A DNA stretch of 48,422 nucleotides from Escherichia phage ETEP102. Below the pieces are notes generated by a model. That model saw only the letters and a program-made list of their open reading frames with translations, was not told the origin of the DNA and did not search any database. The stretch is from sequence record OR979723.1; one strand, given 5' to 3'. The position numbers were made by a program, and so were the translations under genes. This document shows positions 891 to 45,650 of this stretch, in pieces. Each line of letters opens with the position of its first letter. Position 1 is the stretch's first letter.

Positions 891-1427
891 ATGGATAAGG
901 TAACATTGGGTGATGTGATTCGCGAGATGGTACGCCAGGCAATTAAGTCCGACAAGAAGCTGTGCGTAGTTCCGGTTCGCAAGATATTCAACCTGGTAAA
1001 TGGTCATGATTATCCAGATGAAATACTGGACGAGGTGACGGGGGAGTACATGACTCCCGGGCGTGAGATCGTAGGTCTTAAAAGTTCATACATCTATAAC
1101 ACCGCAGCAAGAATGCAGGAGCTTCGGGATATTGATATGCACGTCAAGCATCGCTTTATCTGGCTGGCGTCAGGAGAGGAAACTGTAGCACGCAAGGCGG
1201 ATGGCGACGGCGCTGATAAGAACCTGTTAATCCAGCTTGAACCCGGGGCACTTAAGCCAACCAAACGAAAGACTGCAGATGTTGAGAGAGAAGTGGCAGC
1301 TATTGAAAGGTTCAAGGCTCGTCTGCTCAAGATCACACCAAACGTCATCGACCTGAAAGGCGAGCAGAAAGAAGGCGCTCTCATTGCCCTGGCACGTTAC
1401 CATGAAATGATTAAGGATACTAACTAA
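891..1427 (+). CDS. hypothetical protein (178 aa)
   Basis: ORF with GAGG about 9 nt upstream of ATG; no recognisable motif. Confidence 0.5.
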   Translation: MDKVTLGDVIREMVRQAIKSDKKLCVVPVRKIFNLVNGHDYPDEILDEVTGEYMTPGREIVGLKSSYIYNTAARMQELRDIDMHVKHRFIWLASGEETVARKADGDGADKNLLIQLEPGALKPTKRKTADVEREVAAIERFKARLLKITPNVIDLKGEQKEGALIALARYHEMIKDTN

Positions 1428-1987
1428 TGTTTAATTTCGACGAAGATAAATTGACCGATGAAAAGGTGATGGAAGTCGCCAGGCAAGATAACCTGCCTCC
1501 ACTTCGTGTGGCAATCAATGCTAATGGATACCGTCAATAATTCAAGTTCTGGCCCAGCGCCGAAGAGATGCTGTGCGTCAAGTTGAGCTACAAATACGGC
1601 GTCGTAGTGAGCAGGATTCGCCGCCAGTGCTGCAACGGGAAGGGAGTGTCTGGCATTCGATCTCTATACGAGGCAATCCGAAAGGTCCAGCCATTCGTCG
1701 GGCGCGAAGGGATTATGCATGACCTGACAAATAACATCATCCCAGCACTACAGGAGGCGGGAATTGTTTGCCTCATTGGCGATAAGATTTATGTGCATCC
1801 GGCCCTGGTGGGAATGTATGAGCGAGACGTGTACAACTGGTGCAGTCAGTACCGATCTGATGCGCCACGCTCTCACTACGTTGAGCCGATTAAGCCGACA
1901 ACCATCCATGGCTATGATGCCGATGAGGTGGAGAAGGCCATCCAGTTCTACCGGAAAGCGAAATCTCTCCTGAATGGTGAATATTAA
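1427..1987 (+). pseudogene. internally deleted remnant paralog of the P-loop ATPase at 44067-45650, with in-frame TAA at 1538-1540
   Basis: 1427-1537 encodes MFNFDEDKLTDEKVMEVARQDNLPPLRVAINANGYRQ (matches N-terminus MFDFNEDKLSIDQVMAVAAADNLPPLRVAINANGYRQ); same frame continues after TAA into ORF 1568-1987 whose GKGVSGIRSLYEAIRKVQPF...IGDKIYVHP matches the ATPase C-terminus; central P-loop region absent. Confidence 0.5.
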
Positions 1988-3494: not shown

Positions 3495-4061
3495 GTGCAC
3501 GAAGCATGTGAGCAATTACTCAAGGATTTGCCTAAGTACAATGGCGATCCGTGTCACAGCACTGTCGATGCATTCGTTAGTGAAATGGCAAAAGCTCCGG
3601 ATGATGGCGTGAAGTGTTATTACCTTGTCGCAGATGAATTGACGAAGAACGGCAAGTTCACTTTCGGTAGCAATTTCGGTGAAGGCAAGGCGCTCACCAT
3701 GTCAACCGCGAAAATGGAACCACGCATCGGCGGTTACGGGTATGGCAATCGTCACGTATGGGCGGTTGGTGAATGTGAATCAGCACGCGATCGCAAGGTG
3801 GCAGTTTGCTACCATGTTAATAACGGCAGTGCGTTTATCAATGGTTGCGAGTACGCGTATGAAATTGATGAATGCGAACCAGGTTGCGAGCCTCGCCTTA
3901 TCCATATCGCACAAGATGCATTCATCTCTGATTTAAAAGGCGATTACCGATGGAAAGCAAAGAGAATTGGTAAGGTTATGAATGCCAAGGCAACGCTAGG
4001 TGACGCATACGCAATAGTAAATCCTGATTGCGGCGTAGTGGCTAAGTTCTATATCAAATAG
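3495..4061 (+). CDS. Cys-rich hypothetical protein (188 aa)
   Basis: ORF in track; first codon is GTG (in-frame TAG three codons upstream), an internal ATG start is possible; many Cys/Gly residues. Confidence 0.45.
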   Translation: MHEACEQLLKDLPKYNGDPCHSTVDAFVSEMAKAPDDGVKCYYLVADELTKNGKFTFGSNFGEGKALTMSTAKMEPRIGGYGYGNRHVWAVGECESARDRKVAVCYHVNNGSAFINGCEYAYEIDECEPGCEPRLIHIAQDAFISDLKGDYRWKAKRIGKVMNAKATLGDAYAIVNPDCGVVAKFYIK

Positions 4062-4076
4062 CACCTTTTGTTAAAA
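4058..4076 (+). promoter_or_regulatory. ATAGCACCTTTTGTTAAAA motif copy with extended -10
   Basis: Overlaps TAG stop; about 24 nt to TGGTATAAT (4095-4103); ATG at 4135. Confidence 0.5.
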
Positions 4077-4134
4077 GGGGTGGTTCATCCTGACTGGTAT
4101 AATCCCCACATCAACCACACGAAAGGATAGCAAC

Positions 4135-4944: not shown

Positions 4945-5562
4945 ATGTCAAAGATTATCATTCTAAACGGTCCTGCTGGCGTAGGTAAAGACACGATCGG
5001 CAATGCACTGGCAGCAGATTACAACTGCATCCCTACCAGCTTCAAACGTCCGATGTTTGAAATTGCAGCATCCATCCTTGGGGCCAGGGATTTTTCAAAG
5101 TTCATCACAGCATACGACGACCGCGATCAGAAAGAGCAGCCTCAGGGCTTTCTCGGTGGCAAGACCTGCCGTGAGTTCATGATCTGGATTAGCGAAACAG
5201 TGGTCAAGCCGCTTTTTGGCAATCAGCAGTTCGGCAAATTGATGAGCGAACATATCCGTCTGTGTGATGAAGGATTCTGTTTTGTTTGCACTGATGGCGG
5301 GTTCCCTGACGAAGTGATCCAACTCCTTGAAGATGGTCACGATGTCACCCTGGTTCGCCTATTCATGGATGGCAAGACTTTCGATGGCGATAGACGTGAT
5401 TACATTCGTCTTAAGGAATTGTACTACCCTTATTACAAGAAATATAACGAGCATGATGTGCATCTGGTTAATGGTGATATTGAAGGCGGTGTGCTGTCGG
5501 TTGTTAGAGCTTGCGGTATCCGTCCTGCAATCGACGAGTGGGCCGACGATATTCCCTGGTAA
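4945..5562 (+). CDS. P-loop kinase (candidate polynucleotide 5'-kinase partner)
   Basis: Walker A GPAGVGKDT near N-terminus; adjacent to phosphatase gene. Confidence 0.55.
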   Translation: MSKIIILNGPAGVGKDTIGNALAADYNCIPTSFKRPMFEIAASILGARDFSKFITAYDDRDQKEQPQGFLGGKTCREFMIWISETVVKPLFGNQQFGKLMSEHIRLCDEGFCFVCTDGGFPDEVIQLLEDGHDVTLVRLFMDGKTFDGDRRDYIRLKELYYPYYKKYNEHDVHLVNGDIEGGVLSVVRACGIRPAIDEWADDIPW

Positions 5563-5580
5563 ATAGCACGAATTGCTAAG
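5563..5580 (+). promoter_or_regulatory. ATAGCACGAATTGCTAAG motif copy
   Basis: Immediately after TAA stop; 22 nt to TATAGT (5601-5606); ATG at 5636. Confidence 0.5.
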
Positions 5581-5600
5581 CCCGCTCCGGCGGGTTTTGT
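5581..5600 (+). terminator. hairpin plus T-run (terminator-like, embedded in promoter spacer)
   Basis: CCCGC-TCCG-GCGGG followed by TTTTGTT. Confidence 0.45.
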
Positions 5601-5635
5601 TATAGTTAGTTCACACCAAACGAGAGGAAACAAAG

Positions 5636-5794
5636 ATGATTACTATCAACCTGTCAGACAAGCAAGCCGCCACACTGAAATATTTACTCGCAAGCCAGCC
5701 TATGCATTTCTCGGCCGATGAGTACTACGAGATGGTCAAAGAGGTTCACACTCAGATCAACAATCAACAATTCGACGAAAACGAAGGTGAATAG
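5636..5794 (+). CDS. small hypothetical protein (52 aa)
   Basis: ATG with GAGAGGA 7 nt upstream; MITINLSDKQAATLKYLLASQ... Confidence 0.4.
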   Translation: MITINLSDKQAATLKYLLASQPMHFSADEYYEMVKEVHTQINNQQFDENEGE

Positions 5795-5958
5795 CCATGA
5801 AGTTCAATAAGACCGAGAAGAAAAGTTGATCGCATCAATGATAAGCGCCGCCACCGCCGACTCTGCCGACAGTACGGTAAACTTCGATTCAATGAGCCTG
5901 GTATGTTCTGCTTTATCGCTTGGCGAGCAATGAAAGATATTGCGCGAAACCATAAGCG

Positions 5959-5979
5959 ATAGCACTTTTTGTTAAAAAC
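5959..5979 (+). promoter_or_regulatory. ATAGCACTTTTTGTTAAAAAC motif copy
   Basis: 22 nt to TATAGT (5997-6002) inside hairpin GGGGTA/TACCCC; leader CCATCGAAAC; ATG at 6033. Confidence 0.5.
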
Positions 5980-6032
5980 AATTCACGGGGTAGCGGTATA
6001 GTTACCCCATCGAAACTAACGAGGAAGCAGAA

Positions 6033-6254
6033 ATGAAAATTGAAATTATCGACGTTGACTACCAGGTAGATCAGATCGATCAGGGGGTTCTCACACTGCG
6101 TGAATGTGGTTTTCAGGTTGGCGATGTAGTAGAGGTATCCGGTCACTACGTTAATGGAGACTTGTCGATTCAGGCAATCCGTGAAACGGAGCTGGTTAAG
6201 GTCGGCAATGAAATCAGTATCAGTGATCATGAATACAAGGTGGTTGAGGAATGA
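6033..6254 (+). CDS. hypothetical protein (73 aa)
   Basis: ORF with GAGGAAG upstream. Confidence 0.45.
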   Translation: MKIEIIDVDYQVDQIDQGVLTLRECGFQVGDVVEVSGHYVNGDLSIQAIRETELVKVGNEISISDHEYKVVEE

Positions 6255-6589
6255 TTTACATACACACATACGGCGTCGGCAAGTTCGGTAAAGAAATACA
6301 CCGAACCGTCCACGACACGAAGGAATCAGCAGAATCGGCACAAAAAGTTCTCGGCGGTGAGTTCAAGGCTTACCGCGACGCAGAAGACTCTGTTGAATGC
6401 TGGCAGATTGAGCACGTGCGCAATATGCTGGAAAGTGAAGTGTCAGAGCTTATCGATAACATGACGAGTCACAGCCCTGGAGGACCATGGGAAGAACCAG
6501 GCTCACCGGAATGGTATTGTGCAAAGGTTGACACAATGAACAAGATCAGCAAAATCATTGATGAGGTGTACAAATCATGTTTGGATTAA
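6251..6589 (+). CDS. hypothetical protein (112 aa)
   Basis: ORF, ATGA overlap with upstream gene. Confidence 0.45.
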   Translation: MIYIHTYGVGKFGKEIHRTVHDTKESAESAQKVLGGEFKAYRDAEDSVECWQIEHVRNMLESEVSELIDNMTSHSPGGPWEEPGSPEWYCAKVDTMNKISKIIDEVYKSCLD

Positions 6590-6978: not shown

Positions 6979-7053
6979 GCTCCGCTAGCTCAATTGGATA
7001 GCAGCAACGACCTTCTAAGTCGTATGTTACTGGTTCGAATCCAGTGCAGAGCG
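6979..7053 (+). tRNA. tRNA-Arg (anticodon TCT), encoded CCA follows at 7054-7056
   Basis: Hand-folded cloverleaf: acceptor 6979-6985/7046-7052 (one C-A mismatch), D-loop with GG, anticodon stem 7007-7011/7019-7023, loop CTTCTAA, T-loop TTCGAAT. Confidence 0.75.
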
Positions 7054-7060
7054 CCAATTT

Positions 7061-31616: not shown

Positions 31617-33536
31617 TCAACGCCAAGTGCTTTGATTTATTATATAAGTTGATATTTCAGACCAATAAATCGCTGTAATTAAGCAAGTTTTTGTAGTGGA
31701 GGTGTTAGCCCCAGTAACATCAAGGGAAATTCCATTAAATGACAGACTTTGAATGTTTGCCCCCCTTAAAATTAAATTAATACACTCACCATCCCTTGGT
31801 GTTGTTGTCGTAACATCAAGCCCTGAAGTAACGTTAATTCTGTAAGATGAATAACCTTCTCTTGTATTTATTGGCAATGATGATGATGAGTATTGTTTTA
31901 AAGAGTTATTTCCAAGATCAAGGATTAATCCTCCAACAACGCCAATTTTATTAAGGAACCCACCCCAGATCTTAGAGCCATCTGCCCTACAGTTTACTCC
32001 AGAAGCGAAGTTGTACAAGCCAATAGATCTATCTGCTGGATTGAAAGCTCCTATAGTTGCGTGGTTTGCGCCAGAACCTTTGAAACATGACTCACCAACA
32101 TTAAGACTGTGATGTGTGGCGTTGCTTGTAAAATAATAACTTCCACTTGACAAAGCAACATCTGACACTCCATTCCTTTCAAGGTAAGTACCATTAACCA
32201 AAGTGCTAACACCAGAATCTAGTATGCCGTACTTTGATGTATTTTGAGAGTAACCACCGTTGATTACTGTAGCAGCGGTAGGCCAAAGATCGGAGCCTTC
32301 AGGGAAATTAAATGAACCATCACTTCCGTTAAATATTACAATTCCATAATCTGGGAGCGCACCTGAATGATCACCACTATAACCTATGTGATTGTTTATA
32401 AGAACAGAGTTTGGGCCATTCCTTAAAAGCACCCTAATGGAGCCTACCCCGCCATTTAAAATCTCAGAGTCATTAAACCTAAAACCATAGCTAAACTTTT
32501 CAATTATAACCCCATTATTAGAGGAACCAAGACCCAGATCAAGCCACAAACCATCAACCCCAGAGTTATTCCTTGCGTTAAAAGCGTGAAGTCCAATGCA
32601 ATTGTTAAAACCAACGGTAGAAAGTCTAGGATTGTAAACCTTGCAGTTCCTAATGAATGCAGATGATACATCTTCCGATGACATTCTAAGTAAAGTAACG
32701 TTATTTGATGAAGCAGAGAGAAGTGCACCAGCAGACCAATACAATCTAGTGTTTTGAGCGAGCGCCCATGTCTGAGTTGCTGATGCAACATAATACTGAC
32801 CACTATTAACAAAAATATCCCCACCAGATAAAAGGATAGCCCTTATCTCCTGATTAGTCATAGTTGGATATATGTTTTTAAAGTTTAATGTTTCAATCTT
32901 AGAGTATACATTAAGGTTCAACCTTGCTAGTGGCTTATCAGTTAGATCAGACAAAGCCAGGTCTTTTCTTAAAAGTATTGATGTATCGAGAGATGCCGCG
33001 TAATACTCTGCCTCCTGAGCCGAAGTGGCTGCTGAATTCTTGCTGCTTTCGGCTGCTAGTGCGCTGGCCGAAGCCGCATCCTTATCAGCTGATACTTTGG
33101 AGGCGTCAGTAGATACTTGTAATCCAATTGATACAATATCTCCGTGTTGCGTGTTAACCTGCGCAACCTTCGCGCTAAAGTCATTAGCATCAAAGTTATT
33201 AAATGCATCAACTGCATCTGCAACCTCAGTTTCACGTGACTGATAGTAACGAAGCGTCTCAGCAACATCCTGAGCTAAGCCCTGAACGGTAATCCCATCG
33301 TGAGCAAGAATCGCGTAACCAGTTCCGGCAGGAACAGTTTCAGAATTAGGGTTATAAACATTAATCTGCGTATCGCTGATAATTTCTGAGATAGTGTAAA
33401 TCTGTACTGGTTCAGTTTTGAAAACAATGGTAGCACCAACGCGAATCAGTGTAAGCGGTGCTTTCCATGTCGTCCCGACGCCAGTAACCTCGCCATTTGC
33501 GGCTAGCGATGCTGTTCCTAAGTCATAAATTGCCAT
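31617..33536 (-). CDS. tail fiber / tailspike with beta-helix-like central region
   Basis: 639 aa; ATG 33536 with GGAG upstream (track start TTG 33545); N/G/S-rich repeats (NCKVYNPRLSTVGFNNCIGLHAFNARNNSG) suggest a right-handed beta-helix. Confidence 0.6.
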   Translation of the reverse strand: MAIYDLGTASLAANGEVTGVGTTWKAPLTLIRVGATIVFKTEPVQIYTISEIISDTQINVYNPNSETVPAGTGYAILAHDGITVQGLAQDVAETLRYYQSRETEVADAVDAFNNFDANDFSAKVAQVNTQHGDIVSIGLQVSTDASKVSADKDAASASALAAESSKNSAATSAQEAEYYAASLDTSILLRKDLALSDLTDKPLARLNLNVYSKIETLNFKNIYPTMTNQEIRAILLSGGDIFVNSGQYYVASATQTWALAQNTRLYWSAGALLSASSNNVTLLRMSSEDVSSAFIRNCKVYNPRLSTVGFNNCIGLHAFNARNNSGVDGLWLDLGLGSSNNGVIIEKFSYGFRFNDSEILNGGVGSIRVLLRNGPNSVLINNHIGYSGDHSGALPDYGIVIFNGSDGSFNFPEGSDLWPTAATVINGGYSQNTSKYGILDSGVSTLVNGTYLERNGVSDVALSSGSYYFTSNATHHSLNVGESCFKGSGANHATIGAFNPADRSIGLYNFASGVNCRADGSKIWGGFLNKIGVVGGLILDLGNNSLKQYSSSSLPINTREGYSSYRINVTSGLDVTTTTPRDGECINLILRGANIQSLSFNGISLDVTGANTSTTKTCLITAIYWSEISTYIINQSTWR

Positions 33537-43609: not shown

Positions 43610-44134
43610 TTAGCGCCCGTGGTTATGGTGGAATTTAAGCCTTGCCCTAGCATCAATCACGGCCTGGCAGGCATCATCAAACAGGTAAAAAGTTCCTAGT
43701 GCAATTCTTTTACCGCTCAGGGATATTCTGGCCTTGAACTTCCCGTTCTTTTCAATCGTAACGCCAGGGAATCCGCTGGTGTTATTCTTATATACACTTT
43801 TGTTTTTTGAGTTATCTTGAGCCGATACAAGCCTGAGATTTACTCGTCTATTATCCATTCTATTATGATTTATGTGGTCAATCTGCATCCCCTTCGGTAT
43901 TTCACCCTCTCAAATATTCCATATTACAACGTGATTTGTCAGCCTCTTACCACCATAATCGAAACGCCTATAGCCACCTCTTGACTTATTGCCGCAATAG
44001 TTACCTTCTATCGCGGTTGGGTTTATTGTCCTAAGCCAGACTAAATCAATACCATCATAACCAATGTCAGGATAGCAATCGTGGGTTAACATATACCTTG
44101 TCTCCAATTGTGCAGGTGTAATATTTCTCATCAA
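43610..44134 (-). pseudogene. HNH homing endonuclease interrupted by in-frame TGA (43910-43912)
   Basis: Track ORFs 43910-44134 and 43610-43888 are in the same frame; joined reading ...HVVIWNI-stop-EGEIPKGMQIDHINHNRMDNRRVNLR matches intact paralog ...HRVIWYIHNGEIPEGMEVDHINHERDDNRISNLR. Confidence 0.6.
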
Positions 44135-45650
44135 GCATTGGCAGTAAGTGATCTTTAATCTTTGTCATTATCCCGGCCTGAGATTCGAATGGCTTAACCT
44201 TACGCGCCGCTTCATATAGGGATCGGACACCTACAACGCCTTTCCCGTTCTTGCCTTGCTTGATCAGGATGTCAATCAGCTTGTTCATCTCAGCATGGTC
44301 GCCAGCATGACCAGCAGCGTTTGCAGATGACAGATAAGTCTTACTCAGTTCCTGGAACATAATTACCGCTTCCTGCATTGTGTCAAGCTCAATCTCTCTG
44401 GACTTCTGCGGACTCCCGCCATTGGGATTAAACCAGTTACGCACAGTGTGAAGAACAGCAGCAATCCTGATGGCCTGCTTATCGAACTTACCCAACGCGC
44501 CGCGCAACATTGTGTGTGAATACTTCCCGCCGTCCGCAAGGTGAGGCTCCATATCCTGACGCGCACGGTTGAGATATTTCATCGCCGACGTGCTCACTGT
44601 CAGGTTGACTTCGTGTTCGCTCATGATCTCATGGACCAGACGGAAGTAGTCCGCCTTGAGTCCGCCATCAATCGGCTCGTATGTTGATTCGCCTTTTTCG
44701 TCAACGAATACACGCTCGCCAAGGAATGACTTCTCACGCACAAGCAAGAAACGTTCTGACACACCGATACCACGCGCACCAGCATTCATGATCGCGTTGA
44801 TTGTTTCATCCTGTGCAATTACAGAGATGCAACCCATCGCAATAAAGCTCATGTTATTGTCTGCGTTCGCACGCGCGATAGATACGTTACCAGCATCCCA
44901 TGCTTTCAGCACAAGCTCGCTGTTCGTTTTCTTTGAACCGTCACCATAGGTCATGCCTAAAAGTGAGTTCACGCTCGTCGCTTCATCCGAGATCACAGAG
45001 AAGTTGCCCTGGCGGTTGTTGATTCTCGCAAGACCTTCCGGCGTGGTGTCTGATACGGGGAACACGATGTCACAAAGGCGTTCCAGTTTTTCTTCCAGTT
45101 CTTCTTTTTCCTCAAACAGCGCCGCCATGTCAGATGGTGATTTCTCCTGCTTCATCTCCTTGGATAGAGCGGAAAGCTTAGCCATAATCTTCTTGCGGTC
45201 ACGCCTTCGGATCTCGTTGAGTCGCTCAGTCTCGGCGATCATCGGGGCCAGTGAAAGTGAGTTGATAGCTGATTTACCCGTCGATGGTGGCTGACTGGTT
45301 ACGACGTACAGCGCGGTAGGCTGTTGTGTTCCGTGATACTCAACCGTAAATCGTCCAAGCATCGCAGCAGAGATACATCCCAGGAAGTGCATATAAGCAG
45401 ATGACTCGGGGAACTGGACTGAGCGAGCAGCGTTGCTCGATAGTTTACCAACGACATCATGATCGTTTCCCAGGGAGATGACGGGATATTTGTCACCGCC
45501 TGAGTCAATCTCTGTAGGAGCTTTCCAGAATGACTGGCTCTGCCTGTATCCGTTGGCATTGATGGCGACGCGCAGAGGCGGGAGGTTATCGGCGGCGGCG
45601 ACAGCCATAACCTGATCAATTGACAATTTATCTTCGTTGAAATCAAACAT
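44067..45650 (-). CDS. P-loop ATPase, putative replicative primase-helicase C-terminal-type (DUF3987-like)
   Basis: Walker A-like SQPPSTGKSA; 527 aa; AAGGAG RBS; family name from recollection only. Confidence 0.5.
   Translation of the reverse strand: MFDFNEDKLSIDQVMAVAAADNLPPLRVAINANGYRQSQSFWKAPTEIDSGGDKYPVISLGNDHDVVGKLSSNAARSVQFPESSAYMHFLGCISAAMLGRFTVEYHGTQQPTALYVVTSQPPSTGKSAINSLSLAPMIAETERLNEIRRRDRKKIMAKLSALSKEMKQEKSPSDMAALFEEKEELEEKLERLCDIVFPVSDTTPEGLARINNRQGNFSVISDEATSVNSLLGMTYGDGSKKTNSELVLKAWDAGNVSIARANADNNMSFIAMGCISVIAQDETINAIMNAGARGIGVSERFLLVREKSFLGERVFVDEKGESTYEPIDGGLKADYFRLVHEIMSEHEVNLTVSTSAMKYLNRARQDMEPHLADGGKYSHTMLRGALGKFDKQAIRIAAVLHTVRNWFNPNGGSPQKSREIELDTMQEAVIMFQELSKTYLSSANAAGHAGDHAEMNKLIDILIKQGKNGKGVVGVRSLYEAARKVKPFESQAGIMTKIKDHLLPMLDEKYYTCTIGDKVYVNPRLLS

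Follow-up and report, generated by a model that had tools for sequence, protein, structure and literature searches.

Positions 5797-5962 of the Escherichia phage ETEP102 genome (sequence record OR979723.1) almost certainly hold a frameshifted copy of the short form of the phage gene phrog_34194, in which a single inserted A separates the first nine codons from the remaining 45. All coordinates refer to the window, by which we mean the whole stretch of 48,422 nt that was analysed. The initial annotation had described 5795-5958 as a gene-free stretch with only very short ORFs between two promoter-like motifs, and every position in that description was confirmed: in our listing of all ORFs of at least 20 aa across window 5300-6500, an intact ORF is absent from these 164 nt between the ATAGCAC motifs at 5563 and 5959 (Table 1). 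An ORF-free stretch of this length is unusual for the region because the adjoining motif-to-start spacers measure about 70 nt (5563-5635 and 5963-6032). Nevertheless, 'gene-free' holds for 5795-5958 in a formal sense only and the stretch is not a spacer, since the ORF is missing because of one frameshift in an otherwise recognisable gene. The locus adds a broken allele to an already catalogued phage gene family, from whose members it differs only in lacking an uninterrupted frame; it is either an unremarkable accessory gene whose frame was lost recently or an error in base calling.

Table 1. Features at and around the interrupted gene, in window coordinates
Feature	Position	Strand	Details
Promoter-like motif and 5' leader of two-gene unit	5563-5635	+	ATAGCAC 5563-5569, TTGCTA 5573-5578, TATAGT 5601-5606
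52-aa gene, upstream neighbour	5636-5794	+	Pfam DUF7180 (PF23805, E 1.9e-12)
Interrupted gene, 5' part	5797-5829	+	ATG 5797 opens 10-codon ORF MKFNKTEKKS, stop TGA 5827-5829
A run with single inserted base	5821-5824	+	AAAA; AAA in four closest relatives
Interrupted gene, remaining 45 codons, +1 frame	5825-5962	+	VDRINDKRRHRRLCRQYGKLRFNEPGMFCFIAWRAMKDIARNHKR, stop TAG 5960-5962
Second short ORF	TTG 5826 / ATG 5838 to stop 5931-5933	+	35 aa from TTG, 31 aa from ATG
Antisense ORF, 53 aa	5965-5804	-	From ORF listing
Antisense ORF, 42 aa	5892-5764	-	From ORF listing
Next promoter-like motif	5959-6032	+	ATAGCAC 5959-5965, TTGTTA 5969-5974; overlaps stop codon of broken gene
73-aa gene, downstream neighbour	6033-6254	+	Synteny conserved in relatives
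Composite motif copies	2199, 3171, 4058, 5563, 5959, 35093, 38168, 39616, 41627	+	
Composite motif copies	254, 28891, 46154, 47756	-	

The interrupted reading frame and its surroundings

The start codon of the interrupted gene lies 2 nt downstream of the stop codon TAG (5792-5794) of the 52-aa gene and has an SD-like AAGGTG 7 nt on its 5' side. Nine codons homologous to the family (MKFNKTEKK) follow from ATG 5797, and then an out-of-frame AGT and the stop codon TGA. At this site the window reads ACC GAG AAG AAA AGT TGA TCG C while the related phage P818 reads ACT GAA AAG AAA GTA GAT CGC; three contigs from SRA runs that carry close homologues (L020, L021 and L022, introduced below) read GAGAAG-AAAGTAGATCGC, GAAAAA-AAAGTAGATCGC and GAAAAG-AAAGTTGATCGC, as against GAGAAGAAAAGTTGATCGC in the window. 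DNA alignments thus place AAA in P818, L020, L021 and L022 and the extra A in the window alone. Over the 948 nt that could be aligned with the closest contig we found only two 1-nt indels, this A and another in the spacer before the 52-aa gene. Removal of the A joins MKFNKTEKK to the +1-frame codons and gives a 54-aa protein. In the homologous frame no ATG, GTG or TTG occurs from the upstream stop (5798-5800) until ATG 5903, and as the C-terminal 45 codons have no start codon of their own they are not translatable by themselves; hence the window copy of the phrog_34194 gene does not run uninterrupted from start to stop. Its position is that of the family, after the DUF7180 gene and with its stop codon within the next ATAGCAC motif.

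The other ORFs of the stretch were considered as real genes and rejected on the basis of six-frame translations: the frame of the plus-strand 35-aa ORF (5826-5933) has stops in at least one relative, and the frames of the minus-strand 53-aa and 42-aa ORFs are likewise stopped in at least one relative. The frame that begins MKFNK... or MKLIK... is the sole one of the six that is open in all relatives.

The two motifs that bracket the stretch belong to a composite promoter-like element of which the window holds 13 copies, each 65-85 nt 5' of a start codon. Its consensus is ATAGCAC-N3-TTG(C/T)TAAA, 22 nt and TATnnT (TAT(A/T)nT) at a constant +38 offset; CATCGAAACGAA and an RBS usually come next, and ATAGCAC on its own was observed 16 times where 6 occurrences were expected. 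The 22-nt spacing exceeds that of a canonical sigma-70 -35/-10 pair, and the upstream box may bind an activator, act as a displaced -35 or be a terminator or processing element. Several copies have a hairpin formed by the spacer and -10 region, its sequence varying from copy to copy, with z -4 to -6 at 2199, 3171, 5959, 38168 and 41627. The 5563 leader contains a GC hairpin and then a T-run at 5578-5597, while downstream of the 5959 motif the hairpin spans 5987-6008, with TATAGT (5997-6002) in and beside its loop, and is followed by CATCGAAAC, an RBS and ATG 6033. The sequence CGATAGCACTTTTTGTTAA at the 5959 motif is invariant in all aligned relatives, and this ATAGCAC takes in the gene's TAG stop, in the window as in all relatives. 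As no copy of the motif lies inside 5795-5958, the stretch gives no sign of a separate transcript and is the distal part of the 5563 unit. The literature on Nouzillyvirus and on Drexlerviridae promoters contained nothing on this motif or on the phrog_34194 gene. Elsewhere in the early region, ARAGORN and Rfam identify a tRNA-Arg (anticodon TCT) at 6979-7056 (+), which is present in ESCO41 and unannotated in several relatives.

Intact counterparts in related phages

By megablast, the window is a Nouzillyvirus-like phage that falls among the E. coli phages of Nouzillyvirus (Drexlerviridae), at about 80-89% identity, and no record identical to the window was found. The interval that matches the stretch is about 200 nt longer in the relatives, and every one of them carries a phrog_34194 gene at the same position, in either a long form of 131-132 aa or a short form of 54-56 aa, with the DUF7180 neighbour gene beside the locus in all of them. 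The long form is an annotated CDS of 131-132 aa in ESCO41, 50EP, P818, GaoY1-9D, CJ19 and XT34; in ESCO41, for example, it is the 399-nt CDS ESCO41_00038, which encodes 132 aa and is flanked by the 52-aa gene and the one that follows. The BUCT-XGG-1 annotation starts the same ORF further downstream (119 aa), and the same long ORF is open in the unannotated records of TH21, TH27 and TH30, while the three relatives p111, PH1062 and P817 have a 55-aa ORF instead. Alignment to relatives, which the initial annotation had put forward as a check, therefore places an intact gene at this position, and relatives sharing an empty spacer, which would have spoken against a lost gene, were not what we found. 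Its suggestion of a decayed gene was right insofar as the gene, intact at this position in the relatives, has lost its frame in the window, but 'decayed' overstates what is a single 1-nt lesion.

Two further observations concern individual relatives. In P817 (L002, 1987-2154; MZ826699.1, about 3939-4106, minus strand) the intact 55-aa ORF is unannotated in GenBank, which leaves a comparable apparent gap there. In the tail-fibre gene at 32970-33536 (-), the match to the P818 fibre is limited to the first 182 residues (76%), and the C-terminal parts, presumably receptor-binding, differ between the window and P818.

To the translation of the +1 frame at 5825-5959, tblastn assigned 93.9% identity with the P818 C-terminus over residues 6-54, and 72-74% identity with nine further long-allele records, among them ESCO41, CJ19 and TH30. 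When the translation with one A removed was used as the query against a collection of 5.8 billion proteins, three intact proteins closely similar to the repaired window protein were recovered: P0001 (54 aa, 98% identical), P0002 (56 aa, 94%) and P0003 (54 aa, 93%). They lie on contigs from three independent SRA assemblies of three SRA runs, P0001 at 1738-1902 of locus L020 (Logan contig SRR18313947_7167), P0003 on L021 and P0002 on L022, and the gene order is the same in all three, namely the DUF7180 gene, the phrog_34194 gene and a 70-73-aa gene.

The repaired frame also bears the marks of a protein under selection. In pairwise comparison with L020, L021, L022 and P818 we obtained pS 0.12-0.46, pN 0.008-0.031 and pN/pS 0.04-0.20, the substitutions being concentrated at third codon positions and mostly synonymous. 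In two family alignments all family-invariant columns (E-K ... D-K-R ... R ... Q-Y-x-K ... P ... R ... R) are kept in the +1-frame translation of the window, in which a single amino-acid change (N14) is window-specific. Neither a second lesion nor any other indication of further decay or relaxed selection was seen in this frame. The pattern of substitutions shows that the stretch has been evolving as protein-coding sequence until now, and since the changes are mostly synonymous the lesion is either very recent or an artefact.

The locus shows a presence/absence polymorphism of a domain, with the long form in L001, L004 and L012 and the short form in L002, L005, L006, L020-L022 and the window (5797-5962). 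The short alleles fall into two divergent types, MKLIKSEK... and MKFNKTEK..., and XT34 and P0005 show that recombination exchanges C-terminal sequence types between the long and the short forms. Another case of shortening may be present in the window itself: the product of 1427-1984 (+), about 176-188 aa in length, is 56-65% identical to the two ends (residues 1-48 and 464-527) of the 527-aa product of 45650-44073 (-), and looks like a second shortened paralogue in which the termini are kept and the middle is missing.

Origin of the extra A

Were the extra A carried by the phage, the change from AAA to AAAA at 5821-5824 would shift the frame after codon 9; ribosomes that begin at ATG 5797, translationally coupled to the 52-aa gene, would make MKFNKTEKKS and stop at TGA 5827, and the 45 conserved codons downstream would, for want of a start codon, stay untranslated. 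The insertion would then have inactivated, very recently, an accessory early gene that the phage can do without. This is the reading we prefer, and we give an even chance to the extra A being a real recent mutation of this kind, present in the phage itself and in a gene that is presumably dispensable, rather than a sequencing error. Bearing on this choice is a frameshift screen in which the 154 annotated CDS of CJ19 and P818 were translated and compared with the window; it replaced an earlier screen on all stop-to-stop ORFs of the same two phages, which had suffered from noise from non-coding frames. A match in the window was obtained for 138 of the 154 CDS, and this gene was the only one with a disrupted frame, its window counterpart having no usable start on account of the break, other multi-frame flags being rejected as frameshifts because they are paralogue matches (HNH endonucleases and the 1427-1984 / 44073-45650 pair). 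With one frame break in 138 comparisons, the assembly is not generally prone to homopolymer errors, and because the screen is otherwise clean and a run of 3 to 4 bases offers little scope for an error of this kind, the evidence tilts slightly to a real mutation. The family itself is patchy among Drexlerviridae, with long, short and absent forms, which fits a dispensable accessory gene. The competing explanation, that the 54-codon gene is intact in the phage, with AAA at the site, and that a sequencing or assembly artefact put the extra A into the deposited record, is a serious one, to which we give somewhat less than an even chance. A homopolymer that gains one base (+1), as here, represents the commonest error type of several sequencing platforms; moreover, the repaired frame is perfectly preserved, with its invariant residues all in place and the low pN/pS given above, and an artefact, too, would leave just such a frame, with no secondary decay. 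The extra A is also a singleton, absent from P818, L020, L021 and L022, and no second independent sequence of the phage was found that confirms it: the AAAA variant or this phage gave no match in IMG/VR, JGI metagenomes or GTDB genomes, this phage gave none in E. coli complete genomes, plasmids or the gene-position index, and exact-protein look-ups of both flanking genes returned nothing. An artefact is made less probable by the run being of just four bases, by the lack of any further frameshift in the 138 gene comparisons across 48 kb, and by there being one other 1-nt indel in 948 nt relative to the closest relative, which is intergenic.

The remaining readings carry little weight beside a real mutation or an artefact. 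It is very improbable that the extra A is both real and adaptive, with the early accessory protein knocked out, or strongly knocked down if rare +1 slippage occurs at AAA-A; the change would then have been selected because the protein is recognised in the isolation host or carries a cost there, in parallel with the triggering of CapRelSJ46 by the non-essential Gp54 of Bas11. If that were so, the series of long, short and broken alleles would reflect an arms race at the locus, and the A-rich tract, whose length varies among relatives (A3, A4 and A8), would serve as a mutational switch. Programmed +1 ribosomal frameshifting, by which tRNA-Lys would slip from AAA 5821-5823 to AAA 5822-5824 so that the 54-aa protein is still made, is very improbable even though +1 is the right direction, AAA-A gives tRNA-Lys perfect re-pairing, a UGA stop lies one codon downstream and the downstream frame is fully conserved. 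Each of the 23 matched phage-collection records and of the 42 protein clusters has its ORF in a single frame, and the AAAA variant is absent from every collection searched. Besides, the stop lies outside the A site of the slippery codon, unlike in prfB, the upstream sequence offers only GAGAAG, which is not a good Shine-Dalgarno-like stimulator, the RNA structure of the region is unremarkable, and a newly arisen site would be expected to give at best a few per cent of product. For transcriptional slippage, four A are far too few. The initial annotation had also raised a non-coding RNA, and here we have treated together a small RNA gene, a regulatory leader and a plain spacer, for each of which the similarity to a gene would be irrelevant; the lack of an intact ORF and the position between two promoter-like motifs are in keeping with such an element, which we nevertheless regard as extremely improbable. 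The fold energy is not better than that of shuffled sequences on either strand (z +1.49 and +0.06), no Rfam match was obtained at the gathering score or at E<=1, the substitutions are dominated by third positions as expected of a protein frame, the promoter motif is absent between 5563 and 5959, and the antisense ORFs are broken in relatives.

The A-rich tract itself varies in the family. The gene in L021 (1169-1333; Logan SRR24963438_38917) has an in-frame A8 (GAAAAAAAAGT) at the exact site of the extra A of the window, which makes slippage mutations at this site plausible, and the tract is likely a slippage hot spot in the phrog_34194 gene family.

The protein family and comparison with known alleles

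The repaired 54-aa translation matches phrog_34194, a family of early proteins of Nouzillyvirus and Vilniusvirus, with E 1e-19 over profile positions 112-168 of 168. Proteins of this family have no Pfam domain and no sequence relative in the PDB. Exhaustive profile searches gave 42 clusters at 90% identity, in which the same two architectures recur as in the phage records, and 13 representatives at 50% among 1.84 billion proteins. In an AlphaFold2 model of a long allele (mean pLDDT 81), an N-terminal beta-barrel (1-75) is joined by a disordered linker to a C-terminal pair of helices at 93-109 and 116-128. The window allele corresponds to the helical hairpin alone and has 18 Lys/Arg against 5 Asp/Glu in its 54 residues, a net charge of about +13. 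On account of this Lys/Arg excess the product may, with low confidence, be a nucleic-acid-binding or host-factor-binding early protein. The basic two-helix domain is a functional unit, since two divergent short-allele lineages have kept it on its own under purifying selection. We rejected the downstream 73-aa gene as a paralogue of the long-allele N-terminal domain despite a shared 'FQVG' motif (hhalign probability 0.6%), and disregarded a phmmer match of the 73-aa protein to BurrH as a sum of weak repeat matches.

For annotation, these results mean that the locus is to be recorded as a frameshifted CDS or pseudogene of phrog_34194, with a base call to check, and not as intergenic sequence or RNA. 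They also show that the C-terminal basic two-helix domain is separable from the Gp54-like beta-barrel that is fused to it elsewhere, and suggest that the gene, apparently lost without further consequence, is an accessory early gene; neither point alters the current understanding of these phages.

The N-terminal beta-barrel of the long allele has the fold of Gp54 of Bas11 (PDB 9axb), a small, non-essential beta-barrel protein that triggers the defence protein CapRelSJ46. Sequence similarity to Gp54 of Bas11 was undetectable, and the likeness is limited to a domain that is missing from the window allele. Among the alleles of the locus itself, the second short type (55 aa, MKLIKSEKIITDL...; p111 UGV21813.1, PH1062 WKV16877.1, the P817 ORF and P0005) resembles the window allele in consisting of the C-terminal domain alone (about 55 aa) at the same locus and in the same start context. 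It is in frame, however, and only 55-60% identical to the window allele, its C-terminal sequence being XT34-like whereas that of the window is P818-like. The long allele (P818 UOX38505.1, 131 aa; ESCO41_00038/A0A1U9WQZ4, 132 aa; CJ19_045) occupies the identical genomic position, and its C-terminal 46-49 residues are homologous to the window protein, with 94% identity for P818 and 72% for ESCO41 and with the invariant residues E-K, DKRR, RR, CRQY, K, F, P and the terminal R in common; in contrast to the window allele, which has no barrel, it is in frame and is extended at the N-terminus by a beta-barrel of about 80 residues. The closest counterpart is P0001, which represents the short allele found in the window, begins likewise with MKFNKTEKK (as does P0003), has the same neighbours and, like the window, a stop codon inside the ATAGCAC motif, and whose contig is 95.5% identical to the window over the surrounding 948 nt. 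Apart from a few synonymous changes, the sole amino-acid difference between the two is S14 in P0001 as against N14 in the window, yet P0001 is intact with AAA where the window has AAAA.
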